The translations under genes were made by a program, and so were the position numbers. Below, one piece after another: positions 3 through 2,669 of a stretch of DNA of 32,000 nucleotides. The notes below the pieces were generated by a model that was not told the origin of the DNA, did no database searches, and saw only the letters and a program-made list of their open reading frames with translations. The DNA comes from Kiritimatiellota bacterium (GTDB lineage Bacteria; Verrucomicrobiota; Kiritimatiellia; Kiritimatiellales; Tichowtungiaceae): positions 55,107-87,106 of the forward strand of contig JACNKZ010000029.1 in NCBI GenBank assembly GCA_014381785.1, written 5' to 3'. The stretch's first letter is position 1, and every line of letters starts with the position of its first letter.

Positions 3-122
3 GAGTATGCCGAGGGCGGGCGGGGACTCGCCATCACCAACATTGCCGCGGATTCTGTTGAGCGCTATAGACGCGATTCTAAGAATGTTGTAAGCTACCT
101 TTTCAGGGGACAGTCTGACTAA
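3..122 (+). CDS. 3' end of an unidentified CDS entering from the left window edge
   Basis: Frame 3 is open from the window edge to TAA 120-122 (...EYAEGGRGLAITNIAADSVERYRRDSKNVVSYLFRGQSD*). Its stop overlaps the ATG of the next small ORF (TAATG). Only 39 codons are visible, so the product cannot be identified. Confidence 0.25.
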   Translation, partial: EYAEGGRGLAITNIAADSVERYRRDSKNVVSYLFRGQSD

Positions 123-238
123 TGAATGAATCAGTATATCAGGCACGGCTTGAGCTGTTTAAAACGCTGAATCTACCTGTCTCAAGGGCGGATATGAAAC
201 GCCTGCGCTGGCGTCAGCGTAGCCGCCTGCTGCTGTGA
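122..238 (+). CDS. hypothetical 38-aa basic peptide (uncertain whether translated)
   Basis: ATG 122 to TGA 236-238: MNESVYQARLELFKTLNLPVSRADMKRLRWRQRSRLLL*. The start overlaps the upstream stop (TAATG). It is in the same frame as the downstream sugar transferase, separated from it by the TGA. No recognisable motif. Confidence 0.2.
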   Translation: MNESVYQARLELFKTLNLPVSRADMKRLRWRQRSRLLL

Positions 239-247
239 GAAGGGGCG

Positions 248-856
248 TTGAGAAGTCTGCTGGTGATCAAGCGCATCATTGATGTAATCGGCAGCCTGGT
301 GGCGATTGTATTGTTCATGCCGCTTTTCCTGATCACTGCGCTATGCATCGTTATCGAAGACGGCTGGCCGGTTCTGTATGTGCAATCGCGAATAGGCATC
401 AATGGCCGCGTGTTCAATTTCTACAAATTCCGGTCCATGCGCCGGGACGCCGACCGCATCAAAGAAGAGCTGATGAAACAGAACGAATCGAAAGACGGCG
501 TGATTTTTAAAATGAAGCATGATCCCCGTGTAACCCGGGTCGGGCGGTTTATCCGCCGCTTCAGTATTGATGAGACCCCGCAATTTTTCAACGTACTCGC
601 TGGCGACCTCTCACTGGTCGGCCCGCGCCCGCCCATTCCGTCCGAGGTGGCGCAGTACACCCTCGCGGACCGCAAACGACTCCATGTGAAGCCGGGCCTG
701 ACCTGCCTGTGGCAGGTCGAGGGCCGCTCCGAAATCCCTTTTGATCAGCAGGTGCATCTGGATATGGAATATATCCATAGTCGGAGCCTCTGGACTGATA
801 TTCGAATTATGTTTAGAACAATTCCTGCGGTTCTGCTGGGCCGCGGAGCCTATTAA
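248..856 (+). CDS. small monotopic polyprenyl-phosphate phosphoglycosyl transferase (Bac_transf / PglC-WbaP C-terminal type)
   Basis: 202-aa ORF with TTG start at 248 (GTG 263 is an alternative; an in-frame TGA lies at 236). It has an N-terminal re-entrant helix ([29 protein letters not shown]), KFRSM, [22 protein letters not shown] (Asp-Glu dyad) and LSLVGPRPP. These are the hallmark motifs of bacterial sugar transferases. Confidence 0.9.
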   Translation: [202 protein letters not shown]

Positions 857-870
857 AAGGAGAAGAGAAA

Positions 871-1215
871 ATGAGTGTTACCTGTACAAACGAAAACGGC
901 ACCGGAATCATCAACCTGTCCGGACCCCTCACTGCCGCAACAGTTGAAGCGTTCCGCGAACAGCTTACCGCATGGCAGGCCGGCGAGCCCGATGTGAAAA
1001 ACTTTGTATTTGATCTGTCCGCCGTGGACTTCATGGATAGTGCCGGTCTCGGCGCGCTGATTGCGGCGTTGAAACGCATTACCGAGCGCGGCGGCGACAT
1101 GAAGCTGGCCTGCTTGCAGAAAAAACCCCGTATGGTCTTCGAAATCACCCGCGCCTACAAAGTGTTCGAGATCTACGACACAGTCGAAGAAGCCGTTAAA
1201 GTCGCCGGCGCATAG
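871..1215 (+). CDS. single-domain STAS protein (SpoIIAA/RsbV-like anti-sigma-factor antagonist)
   Basis: AAGGAG RBS 8 nt upstream of ATG 871. The 114-aa protein carries DLSAVDFMDSAGLGALI, the STAS signature with the conserved Ser in a DSxG context. Length is typical of stand-alone STAS proteins. Confidence 0.85.
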   Translation: MSVTCTNENGTGIINLSGPLTAATVEAFREQLTAWQAGEPDVKNFVFDLSAVDFMDSAGLGALIAALKRITERGGDMKLACLQKKPRMVFEITRAYKVFEIYDTVEEAVKVAGA

Positions 1216-1238
1216 GCGCATGGGGTTGTGACGGCTTG

Positions 1239-2669
1239 ATGAAGGCAGTATTCTATACCGGCGGTAAAAAGCCGTGGGCCGATGAGATGGGCAACCGGCC
1301 CTGGGCGTTACTGCCGGTCGGAGGCCATCCCCTGTTGAGTTATTGGCTCGAGCTGTGCGTCGATCTCGGCATCAATGACGTTCAGATCGTTTTGGGGCAG
1401 GATGCTGAGTACATTGAGCTGTTCTGCGGAGACGGCGGGCAATGGGGGCTGAACATCGACTACAGCTTCATCTTTCCGGATGATTCGCCGCAGGACTATC
1501 TCGCCCGCGACCCGCTTCGCTGGAGCGAAGGGCTTTTCTTTTTGAGTGATGCTCTATTCCCCCGCCGACTGGAGAACTTCACCCCGGCGGGTCTGAAAGA
1601 GCTGCTTGCCGGATGCTGTGTCAGCAACGAAGACGGCCCCGCGTTTTTCCTCAGCCCAAACAGTGAGGACATCGCCGCATTTATCCAGGACGGCCAATAC
1701 GCTCAGTCAGCCTGCAACCTGCCCGGCAGCATCGGGCTGGACGTCACCTTGATTCGCGACGTGTCCCATTACTACGAGCTCAACATGGCTGTCGTTCACG
1801 GAGAAATGGATCGCTATCTCTCCAGCGGCTATTCCACCGCGGATGGCGCTTCAATCGGTTATAACGTCATCACGCCGTCATCGGTCACCTTCGCGCCGCC
1901 GCTGGCCATTGGGAATAACTGCCGCCTCGGGGCGCTTTGCTCCATCGGTACCGGAACCGTCATCTCCGACCACGTTCTGATCGATCAGCAGTGCGAGCTG
2001 TCGGAATGCATCATCCTCTCCGACACCTACGTCGGCCGGAATCTGGAGATCAAAGGGAAGATTATCGCGGGCAACCGCATCATTGATCCCGAAGACGGAA
2101 CGTATGTCGACATCGAAGATCCATGGCTGATCGCCTCGACCCGCTTACGCAAATCCTTTAGCGACGGGGTGCGCTCCGTGATCGGGCGGGGACTCGCGCT
2201 GCTTCTGATTCTCATTCAAGTGCTCCCCTTCCTGCTTTTGTACGGTTTGATCCGCGCACTCCGCCGCGGATCATTCATTGAAAAATCGGTATGGGGAATG
2301 AACGGCAGGCGCGTCACCACCTTACACTTTGCGGCGACCAAAGTGACGCCCGACCTGCTGATGATCATGTTCTACGGCGCATCGCTCGACCGCTTTCCGA
2401 AACTCATCGACGTACTCTCTGGCAAGCTTTGGCTGTGCGGGCAGGTGCCTCGAGAAAGCGAACCCCGGGCCTACACACTGAGGAACCGCTACTTCCCCGC
2501 GGTGTTCAGCTATTCAGATGCATTTCCGGAGATCGACGAACAGATGGATGCGCTCTACTACGCGCACACCCGCTCGATCATCGCGGACCTGCGGATTCTC
2601 TATCACGCATTCTTCAAGCGTTTTATCGAAGTGGAATCTGTCGCCACCATTACGAACGGATCGGCCTAA
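1239..2669 (+). CDS. membrane fusion protein: nucleotidyltransferase-like N-domain + left-handed beta-helix (hexapeptide) region + degenerate PGT-like C-domain
   Basis: The ORF track starts at TTG 1236; ATG 1239 (MKAVFYTGG...) is the likely start. The N-terminus resembles sugar-nucleotidyltransferases (LLPVGGHPLLSYWLELCVDLGINDVQIVLG...GDGGQWGLNIDYSF) but lacks the GxGTRL loop. The middle has imperfect hexapeptide-like repeats (IGNNCRLGALCSIGTGTVISDHVLIDQQCELSECIILSDTYVGRNLEIKGKIIAGNRII). The C-terminus has a hydrophobic helix (LALLLILIQVLPFLLLYGLIRAL) and LDRFPKLIDVLSGKLWLCGQVP, which parallels LDELPQLxNVLxGDMSLVGPRP. Confidence 0.75.
   Translation: MKAVFYTGGKKPWADEMGNRPWALLPVGGHPLLSYWLELCVDLGINDVQIVLGQDAEYIELFCGDGGQWGLNIDYSFIFPDDSPQDYLARDPLRWSEGLFFLSDALFPRRLENFTPAGLKELLAGCCVSNEDGPAFFLSPNSEDIAAFIQDGQYAQSACNLPGSIGLDVTLIRDVSHYYELNMAVVHGEMDRYLSSGYSTADGASIGYNVITPSSVTFAPPLAIGNNCRLGALCSIGTGTVISDHVLIDQQCELSECIILSDTYVGRNLEIKGKIIAGNRIIDPEDGTYVDIEDPWLIASTRLRKSFSDGVRSVIGRGLALLLILIQVLPFLLLYGLIRALRRGSFIEKSVWGMNGRRVTTLHFAATKVTPDLLMIMFYGASLDRFPKLIDVLSGKLWLCGQVPRESEPRAYTLRNRYFPAVFSYSDAFPEIDEQMDALYYAHTRSIIADLRILYHAFFKRFIEVESVATITNGSA

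Follow-up and report, generated by a model that had tools for sequence, protein, structure and literature searches.

Organization of the locus

We analyzed a stretch of 32,000 nucleotides (hereafter, the window) from a Kiritimatiellota bacterium (GenBank assembly GCA_014381785.1, contig JACNKZ010000029.1, positions 55,107 to 87,106), the beginning of which encodes, on one strand, a small monotopic phosphoglycosyl transferase (PGT; gene 1), a stand-alone STAS protein (gene 2) and a membrane protein in which two degenerate enzyme folds are joined (gene 3; hereafter, the fusion protein). The features discussed here are collected in Table 1; all genes of the window were read with genetic code table 11. 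The original prediction for this DNA, made from the sequence alone, had described three same-strand genes with their motifs and with spacers of 14 and 23 nucleotides (nt), and these are real: the open reading frames (ORFs) span positions 248 to 856, 871 to 1215 and 1236 or 1239 to 2669, the first spacer (857-870) carries a GGAG ribosome-binding site, and the second one occupies positions 1216-1238. Scanning positions 1-3000 of the window for promoters and terminators yielded counts at chance level, a result that is compatible with a single transcription unit and is otherwise uninformative. The trio as part of a mobile or defence element was considered and rejected, since its flanks consist of housekeeping genes with conserved synteny.

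Table 1. Features of the window and their positions.
Position	Strand	Feature	Remarks
3-122	+	3' end (39 codons and TAA, 120-122) of a REC-PP2C(SpoIIE)-HATPase_c_2 gene	Stop codon overlaps ATG 122
122-238	+	38-codon ORF, conserved N-terminal extension of the PGT	Cut from the core by TGA 236-238 at the Trp39 codon
248-856	+	Small monotopic PGT core, 202 amino acids (aa)	TTG start; all catalytic motifs intact
871-1215	+	Stand-alone STAS protein, 114 aa, SpoIIAA/RsbV type	Predicted phospho-Ser57, codon 1039-1041
1239-2669	+	Fusion protein, 476 aa	Degenerate NDP-sugar pyrophosphorylase fold, left-handed beta-helix (LbH), reentrant-type membrane helix and degenerate PGT-like domain
1239-1814	+	Fusion protein, nucleotidyltransferase-like domain, about residues 1-193	Without GxGTR; Trp for the conserved Lys
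1833-2138	+	Fusion protein, LbH (hexapeptide), about residues 200-301	Pfam LbH_EIF2B 1.1e-6, Hexapep 2.1e-5
2154-2258	+	Fusion protein, hydrophobic helix, residues 307-341	Nearly invariant Arg313, Gln328 and Leu-Pro331 (alignment A3)
2268-2627	+	Fusion protein, PGT-like domain, residues 345-464	DE to DR, PRP to QVP, KFRSM to HFAAT
18683-19423	+	GT2 gene	
20582-21760	-	Wza-like gene (Poly_export/SLBB)	
21757-23181	-	Wza-like gene (Poly_export/SLBB)	
22946-25510	-	854-aa protein	BY-kinase-like AAA_31/CbiA domain
25884-26792	-	AAA_22 ATPase	
29391-30011	+	Stand-alone receiver protein	
30008-31768	+	PAS-HisKA-HATPase_c-REC hybrid histidine kinase	4-nt overlap with the receiver gene

The trio belongs to a five-gene operon that encodes the parts of a partner switch

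The window opens within a further gene. Its positions 3-122 encode, in a reading frame that differs from that of the ORF starting at ATG 122, the peptide ...EYAEGGRGLAITNIAADSVERYRRDSKNVVSYLFRGQSD*, the C-terminus of a GHKL-type kinase domain. This product is 82% identical to the C-terminus of the kinase domain encoded at locus L001 (tblastn), and it is identical to the end of a 544-aa protein encoded at locus L164, which stems from the same organism. At L164, the genes for an Hpt protein (119 aa), the 544-aa Response_reg-SpoIIE-HATPase_c_2 protein, the 38-aa ORF, the PGT core, the STAS protein and the fusion protein follow one another and are delimited by a convergent malic-enzyme gene. Pfam searches with orthologues of the upstream protein likewise recovered Response_reg, SpoIIE and HATPase_c_2 domains. 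The trio is the 3' three-fifths of a conserved operon of five genes in the order Hpt, REC-PP2C-RsbW-like kinase, PGT, STAS and fusion protein.

In a partner-switching module, a STAS protein is expected to be accompanied by a kinase of the RsbW/SpoIIAB type and a PP2C phosphatase, and the original prediction had stated that neither of these partners is present in the window. This is an edge effect: the tail of the kinase lies at positions 3-122, and the full kinase/phosphatase protein is present at L164. The search for both partners that had been proposed thus located them within the operon itself, as parts of a single REC-PP2C-kinase protein that is encoded behind the Hpt gene and carries the RsbW/SpoIIAB-type kinase as its C-terminal and the PP2C/SpoIIE phosphatase as its middle domain. 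The STAS protein in turn consists of a single domain with the conserved Ser in its DSxGLG motif. The parts of a partner switch (STAS protein with an invariant Ser, RsbW-like kinase, PP2C phosphatase, receiver domain and Hpt protein) are hence complete, and they are genetically locked to a PGT with intact motifs and to its dead paralogue. No sigma factor gene, whose product could be the switched partner, was found in the neighbourhoods examined, a distant one being possible.

Conservation and alternative gene arrangements

A scan centred on the fusion protein, with one genome per species, comprised 79 genome loci. The genes for the PGT, the STAS protein and the fusion protein adjoin one another on one strand in about 73 of them, the remainder being contig ends or rearranged versions. 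Hpt, REC, PP2C and kinase are encoded immediately upstream of the PGT in 59 loci, including that of the complete genome of Tichowtungia aerotolerans; locus L083 likewise possesses the Hpt, REC-PP2C-kinase and STAS genes in one operon. Overall, about 60 loci of Kiritimatiellota and their relatives contain the five-gene operon. The bias of this first scan was removed by a second one that was centred on the STAS protein and made in an independent collection, the JGI metagenomes; there, the trio was present in every locus with a STAS identity of at least 52% and enough flanking sequence, except L103. The neighbourhood survey suggested by the original prediction therefore found the trio to be syntenic. 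Its arrangement, seen in well over 100 loci, is far beyond chance, and the system is distributed over Kiritimatiellota, Lentisphaerota, Verrucomicrobiota and others.

In distant loci that retain the operon (type A), it continues into GT2, GT4 and Wza genes. Other loci show different arrangements. Type B (Pedosphaera-like; L079) consists of genes for a GT4, a uridine-kinase-like protein, the PGT, the fusion protein, the STAS protein, a HATPase_c_2-GAF-SpoIIE protein and a receiver protein. Type C (the L112 type; 12 metagenomic loci), whose fusion protein is only 25-30% identical, has the order SpoIIE, WecG, PGT, STAS, fusion protein, second STAS, stand-alone HATPase_c_2 kinase, GT4 and GT2. In L112 itself, the two STAS genes (2742-3110 and 4501-4848) flank the gene for the fusion protein, and the PP2C phosphatase and the RsbW-like kinase are separate genes; the loci that resemble it are L113-L117, L120, L125, L128, L130, L152 and L155. 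Type D (rumen Lentisphaeria) comprises STAS, PGT, fusion protein, a gene of no assigned function, Wza and Wzy_C, and type E (L169) comprises HAMP-SpoIIE-HATPase_c_2, STAS, fusion protein and a metallophosphatase, without an adjacent PGT gene. Still other remote members have PGT, STAS and fusion protein, or STAS and fusion protein, followed by Wza and Wzy_C. Polysaccharide genes (GT2, GT4, Wza and Wzy_C) are thus recurrent neighbours across these loci, and the genes for the STAS and the fusion protein are the most constantly adjacent pair (including L169 and L175).

Two further observations concern these neighbourhoods. In several distant lineages, two conserved proteins without Pfam match (about 375 aa and about 660-700 aa) are encoded directly after the fusion protein and before Wza/Wzy_C (L175, 1885-5042; L171, 6612-9797; L070, 9422-11512; L174, 2999-4135). 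On a high-GC metagenomic contig (L150, 2771-4833), a 540-aa PGT of the large type is directly followed by a STAS gene, with no detectable gene for a fusion protein; this is another possible pairing of a PGT with a STAS protein.

The STAS protein

Gene 2 matches Pfam STAS (1.6e-25) and the NCBIfam anti-sigma factor antagonist family TIGR00377 (3.5e-23) and contains the motif DFMDSAGLG, as expected from its earlier description as a single-domain STAS protein of 114 aa. D56 and S57 of this motif are invariant in alignment A5, and the pattern DS[AST]G[LM]G is present in 100 of the 104 STAS genes that adjoin a fusion gene. NCBIfam also returned weak matches to MlaB and SulP. Across type-A loci, the STAS protein is the most conserved product of the operon, with an identity of about 88-92% vs about 79% for the PGT, 65-85% for the kinase domain and about 60% for the fusion protein; a protein whose surface is for the most part used by several partners would be expected to show such conservation. 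Word-index searches with the STAS protein and the PGT returned, among the matches listed, orthologues only, all of them stand-alone (STAS, 113-114 aa; PGT, 244 aa); these matches contained neither a single polypeptide combining STAS and PGT nor a sequence link to the cyanobacterial STAS-PGT fusions discussed below.

An intact PGT core and an interrupted reading frame

By its profile matches and its motifs, gene 1 is a bona fide small monotopic PGT. It scored 222.4 bits (cut-off 27; E 4e-66) against Pfam Bac_transf (PF02397), matched NCBIfam EPS_sugtrans at 3.1e-85, and reached 287 bits against TIGR03025 across the catalytic region. The catalytic hallmarks to which the original prediction had drawn attention are all in place, i.e., YKFRSM, SIDETPQ with the Asp-Glu dyad, and GPRPP. 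Of 106 PGT homologues, 103 have KFR[ST]M, and the dyad is kept; the catalytic residues are invariant in alignments A2 and A7, from whose invariant columns the conservation of the PRP motif was judged. K8-R9 and M-P25, also invariant, would satisfy the rule for a reentrant membrane helix that was derived from PglC, namely basic residues (Lys-Arg) and a break formed by a Ser or branched-chain residue followed by Pro (PMC6133551). The AlphaFold2 (AF2) model of the PGT displays a long N-terminal helix.

The frame of this gene is not uninterrupted, as had been assumed when gene 1 was taken to extend from 122 to 856; an in-frame TGA at 236-238, which terminates the reading frame from ATG 122, had been overlooked. 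Among the matches listed, nearly all orthologous PGTs have a length of exactly 244 aa; they start with a conserved extension of about 40 residues, MNESVYQARRELFKTLDLPVSKADIKRLRWRQRSRLLVWEW. Gene 1 does not have this full-length frame; its 202-aa core ORF is intact. At the position of the TGA, five relatives have TGG; the most distant architectures, too, have this invariant Trp. The 202-aa core is identical to protein P0281, which is encoded on nine contigs. All five of these contigs that were examined contain the TGA and are 100% identical to the window across 1.1-6 kb (ENA ERZ24794656, with 54x coverage; NCBI GCA_016784555.1; Logan SRR12347134, SRR12347135 and ERR13319543). Since the same TGA occurs in five independent assemblies, one of them at 54x, it is real and not a sequencing error, and it is fixed in the Kiritimatiellales population to which the window belongs. 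At the level of loci, TGA stands at the Trp39 codon in the window and in L164-L168; L080, a contig that encodes an identical fusion protein, ends short of the site. An alternative code in which TGA is read as Trp was rejected: with table 11, the remaining genes of the window are long ORFs without interruption.

Gene 1 is therefore naturally split in this organism into a 38-codon ORF for the extension, which is still well conserved, and a complete catalytic core. Given this split, the core would have to be made either by re-initiation at TTG 248, which sits nine bases past the TGA and is preceded by GAAGGGG, or by rare read-through. UGA is the stop codon most often misread by tRNA-Trp, and rare read-through would restore the wild-type PGT. 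In the AF2 model of a 244-aa orthologue, the extension forms helices at residues 3-15 and from residue 22 onward, the latter running into the membrane helix (predicted local distance difference test, pLDDT, 80-91), so that the break is predicted to fall at the junction of two cytoplasmic helices and the membrane helix. Owing to the split, the system of the window's own organism may be attenuated or rewired.

A family of doubly degenerate fusion proteins

The product of gene 3 has a length of 476 or 477 aa, depending on whether the start at 1239 or that at 1236 is used. Of the profile searches proposed in the original prediction, those with gene 1 (Bac_transf) and gene 2 (STAS) gave matches above the cut-off, and those with gene 3 gave sub-threshold matches only: NTP_transferase/NTP_transf_3 (NTP_transferase, 11.7 bits; cut-off 21.2), Hexapep/LbH, and the C-terminal half of Bac_transf (22.5 bits; cut-off 27). 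Profile-profile comparison with hhalign assigned a homology probability of 94% to the PGT family and the C-terminal part of the fusion protein, and it paired a 24-residue segment of the PGT with SLDRFPKLIDVLSGKLWLCGQVP of the fusion protein.

The AF2 model of the fusion protein (pLDDT 87.7; predicted template modelling score 0.78) consists of a Rossmann-like domain, a left-handed beta-helix with short beta-strands across residues 205-301, a 35-residue helix (307-341; pLDDT above 90) and an alpha/beta domain. Foldseek and PDB hmmsearch matched the first 300 residues to tlr0611 (8x7s), GMPPA/GMPPB (7d72), VTC1-KJC2 (8yre), the gamma and epsilon subunits of eIF2B, and GlmU; Foldseek E values for these nucleotidyltransferase and LbH structures ranged from 1e-10 to 1e-15. 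The last 110 residues matched PglC (8e37, 8g1n) and WbaP in the PDB. By its sequence, the hydrophobic helix, with its upstream Arg and its Leu-Pro break, matches the determinants of the reentrant helix of PglC (PMC6133551).

Both sets of catalytic motifs are lost throughout the family, so that the earlier designation as a doubly degenerate fusion is correct and family-wide. In the N-terminal part, the fold of the sugar-1-phosphate nucleotidylyltransferases is shared, and their motifs and profile are not: AAGKGTR of 8x7s_B aligns with tgekkaW of the fusion protein, our motif census found GxG[TS]R in none of 103 homologues, and the "PK" motif reads PW[AP]. For the C-terminal part, homology to monotopic PGTs is supported by hhalign and by the PglC and WbaP matches, again without the motifs and the profile. 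The Asp-Glu dyad is never DE in the census (DR in 61 members, DL in 17, otherwise DK or NK), KFR is lost, and the PRP position reads QPP, QVP or HEP, with x-Arg-Pro in only three of 87 matched members (ARP, VRP and HRP); the fusion-like proteins of L078 and L079 carry NRP there.

We weighed whether the fusion protein might nevertheless be a divergent, active bifunctional enzyme, which would for instance make and transfer an unusual activated sugar, with the STAS protein as a ligand-binding or structural accessory of the MlaB/SulP kind and no phospho-switch at all. About 90% of the members retain the Asp that aligns with the PGT nucleophile, and the family is strongly conserved: an exhaustive profile search yielded 880 clusters (at 50% identity) with E<=1e-30, the top 150 of them nearly all 440-490 aa long, and homologues remain full length down to 25% identity. 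The weak matches of the STAS protein to MlaB and SulP would also fit. Against this stand the motif losses listed above, the intact PGT that is always or nearly always co-encoded, the invariant Ser in a canonical DSxGLG motif, and the co-encoded dedicated kinase and phosphatase. We regard an active enzyme as very improbable.

Comparison with known systems

In the literature we found no account of a pseudo-PGT, of the fusion family or of this operon in Kiritimatiellota. The statement in the original prediction that no described system has such an arrangement is, in spirit, no longer true. In Anabaena sp. PCC 7120, the protein All4160 carries an N-terminal STAS domain fused to Bac_transf; the kinase Alr3423 phosphorylates Ser74 and thereby turns the enzyme off, and the REC-SpoIIE phosphatase HenR turns it on (Harada, Matsuoka & Ehira, Mol Microbiol, June 2026; PMC13555669). 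As in this system (and in XssP of Synechocystis), a STAS unit with a phosphorylatable Ser is coupled in the operon to a Bac_transf enzyme, the switch is built from REC-SpoIIE and an RsbW-like kinase, and the predicted output is the initiating enzyme and no sigma factor. There are three differences. The STAS protein is separate here, encoded 14 nt behind the PGT gene, and its kinase and phosphatase are fused, operon-encoded and placed behind an Hpt protein, whereas the Anabaena enzyme carries STAS as a fused domain and the kinase and phosphatase genes are unlinked. A third player, the dead pyrophosphorylase/LbH/PGT-like fusion protein, is present. Finally, the authors considered the strategy to be largely specific to cyanobacteria, with such fusions being rare elsewhere (PMC13555669), whereas the system described here occurs in Kiritimatiellota, Lentisphaerota, Verrucomicrobiota and others.

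An older analogue is SypA of Vibrio fischeri, a stand-alone STAS protein that operates below SypE and acts below the level of transcription, with a target that is still unknown (PMC10120452; PMC4517449). It shares with the operon the stand-alone STAS protein and the single multidomain response regulator with an RsbW-like kinase and a PP2C phosphatase, and it is encoded within polysaccharide genes (the syp locus). The domain order of SypE, kinase-REC-PP2C, differs from the REC-PP2C-kinase order found here. The syp locus is not known to have a fusion-like pseudoenzyme, nor its PGT, SypR, to be encoded next to sypA.

By domain architecture, the signalling genes can be likened to HptB-HsbR-HsbA of Pseudomonas aeruginosa and CrsR-CrsA of Shewanella, in which Hpt, REC-PP2C-kinase and STAS follow in the same order and whose outputs are FlgM/FliA, the diguanylate cyclase HsbD and RpoS (PMC6482189). 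This gene order was found in the 59 loci mentioned above, in L164 and in L083. Unlike in the model systems, which have neither a PGT nor a fusion protein, a PGT gene lies between the kinase and the STAS genes.

The N-terminal part of the fusion protein resembles GMPPA (7d72), KONJAC/KJC (8yre), eIF2B gamma/epsilon and GlgD, which have the nucleotidyltransferase and LbH fold with a lost signature motif; these inactive pyrophosphorylase paralogues regulate an active partner. Unlike in those proteins, a membrane helix connects the dead module with another dead domain, one that descends from a monotopic PGT. Among the monotopic PGTs, PglC represents the small type and WbaP the large type with accessory domains. 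Gene 1 belongs with the small ones, but its subfamily carries about 40 additional, conserved residues at the N-terminus, here split off by a stop codon; the C-terminal domain of the fusion protein is homologous to the monotopic PGT fold and keeps the reentrant-helix determinants but not the catalytic dyad, KFR or PRP.

A model for the control of glycan initiation

We propose that the partner switch acts directly on glycan initiation, via a complex of the PGT and the pseudo-PGT. This seems to us the probable reading, held with some reserve. The original prediction had suggested control of polysaccharide initiation at the protein level rather than via a sigma factor, and synteny, the kinase and phosphatase within the operon and the lack of an adjacent sigma factor gene support this view.

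In the model, hybrid histidine kinases would phosphorylate the Hpt protein, which in turn would phosphorylate the receiver domain of the bifunctional enzyme; the phosphorylation state of the receiver would then set the balance of phosphatase and kinase activities on Ser57 of the STAS protein, as in HptB-HsbR (PMC6482189). One phospho-form of the STAS protein would dock on the complex of PGT and pseudo-PGT at the membrane; All4160 and SypA suggest by analogy that this is probably the unphosphorylated form, and that it is the "on" state. The cytoplasmic pyrophosphorylase-like/LbH module of the fusion protein is the likeliest docking site, because STAS and fusion genes are the pair that is most constantly adjacent. 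The extension of the PGT may be an alternative or additional docking element; the STAS domain of All4160 sits at the same end of that enzyme. Docking would switch the reaction that loads sugar-1-phosphate onto the lipid carrier, which in a Wzx/Wzy-type polysaccharide pathway is the committed step. The fusion protein would serve as a non-catalytic regulatory subunit that heterodimerizes with the PGT via its PGT-like domain, and its dead pyrophosphorylase fold may allow it to sense a nucleotide sugar, in the way in which GMPPA serves GMPPB. Rather tentatively, and aware that it may well prove wrong, we extend this to the idea that the fusion protein is an undescribed, widespread, membrane-anchored pseudoenzyme receptor that would read the phospho-state of the STAS protein, and possibly the level of a nucleotide sugar, and would gate its partner PGT by forming a hetero-complex.

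Near its far end, the window encodes a stand-alone receiver protein and a hybrid histidine kinase (Table 1). Such kinases are the usual phosphodonors for Hpt proteins, and the one encoded here is for this reason a candidate input to the switch.

Several observations weigh against direct control of glycan initiation. In the close relatives of the window's organism, the operon is not located within a polysaccharide cluster, and the nearest export genes of the window are 18 kb away. Locus L082 (ENA ERZ21831104, an 816-kb contig; 6931-9345) has the genes for Hpt, REC-PP2C-kinase and a STAS protein with 69% identity, shares its upstream synteny with Tichowtungia, and possesses neither a PGT nor a fusion gene; MacB/FtsX ABC genes lie downstream, and a flagellin gene follows about 7 kb downstream. 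By analogy with HsbA, L082 implies that the switch can exist without the PGT and fusion protein as outputs, or that it may have others. Some fusion genes have no STAS or PGT gene next to them (L171, L172). Both the active phospho-form and the choice of the fusion protein or the PGT as the STAS partner are drawn from analogy and gene adjacency. An output at the level of transcription is possible as well, since kinase domains of the HsbR/CrsR type bind RpoS (PMC6482189).

The last of these points leads to a classical transcriptional switch, in which the RsbW-like kinase would be the anti-sigma factor of a distant sigma factor and the STAS protein its antagonist, the PGT and the fusion protein being co-transcribed cargo or members of the regulon. 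The shared set of Hpt, REC-PP2C-kinase and STAS proteins with HptB-HsbR-HsbA and CrsR-CrsA would be accounted for in this way, and so would the signalling genes that L082 retains. However, no sigma factor gene was seen beside any architecture examined, within operon neighbourhoods and with a distant one being possible, nor was the STAS gene found to be conserved elsewhere with a classical anti-sigma kinase and a sigma factor, its kinase and phosphatase being encoded in its own operon. Moreover, the STAS gene lies in between those for the PGT and the fusion protein and remains beside the fusion gene when gene order or kinase architecture change, and in Anabaena a STAS-PGT fusion protein is regulated directly (PMC13555669). 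We consider a transcriptional switch to be unlikely.

L082 bears equally on the notion that the STAS protein has several outputs, as HsbA does, with the PGT and the fusion protein as only one of them or as a lineage-specific addition to an ancestral role in, e.g., motility or stress; its Tichowtungia-like upstream synteny and the flagellin gene in its vicinity are compatible with such a history. HsbA binds FlgM, HsbD and HsbR according to its phospho-state (PMC6482189), and an identity of about 90% for the STAS protein where the fusion protein has about 60% fits several partners. Yet loci of this kind are few compared with the more than 100 that contain the trio, and the other architectures sit within glycosyltransferase/export clusters, so that we judge several outputs to be a quite unlikely explanation.

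With regard to direct control of glycan initiation, the window's own export genes deserve mention. About 18 kb from the operon, and on the opposite strand, lies a polysaccharide export cluster (20582-26792) with two Wza-like genes, the gene for an 854-aa protein and that for an ATPase; a GT2 gene is encoded nearby (Table 1). This cluster may belong to the pathway that is fed by the PGT.

Implications

Initiation by a PGT is the committed step in the synthesis of capsules, exopolysaccharides and O-antigens, and its post-translational regulation is largely unknown. All4160 (2026) is the only demonstrated case in which a partner switch controls a PGT, and the operon displays the same logic, in split form, across bacteria of the Planctomycetes-Verrucomicrobia-Chlamydiae (PVC) group and others. 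New here are this split form of the system, its phyletic spread, the operon-encoded bifunctional enzyme and, above all, a conserved and hitherto undescribed family of pseudoenzymes. Because the doubly dead fusion protein is a conserved third component, the protein-protein interfaces of the system become separable and testable.

The operon also suggests where the target of SypA-like STAS proteins should be sought. If the fusion protein is indeed a pseudoenzyme receptor, it would provide a concrete class of targets for "orphan" STAS proteins in polysaccharide loci, SypA being an example, and it would correspond, in trans, to the accessory domains that large PGTs carry. Kiritimatiellota play a major part in both the degradation and the production of (sulfated) polysaccharides in the sea and in the gut, and a switch on their own glycan output would therefore be ecologically relevant.

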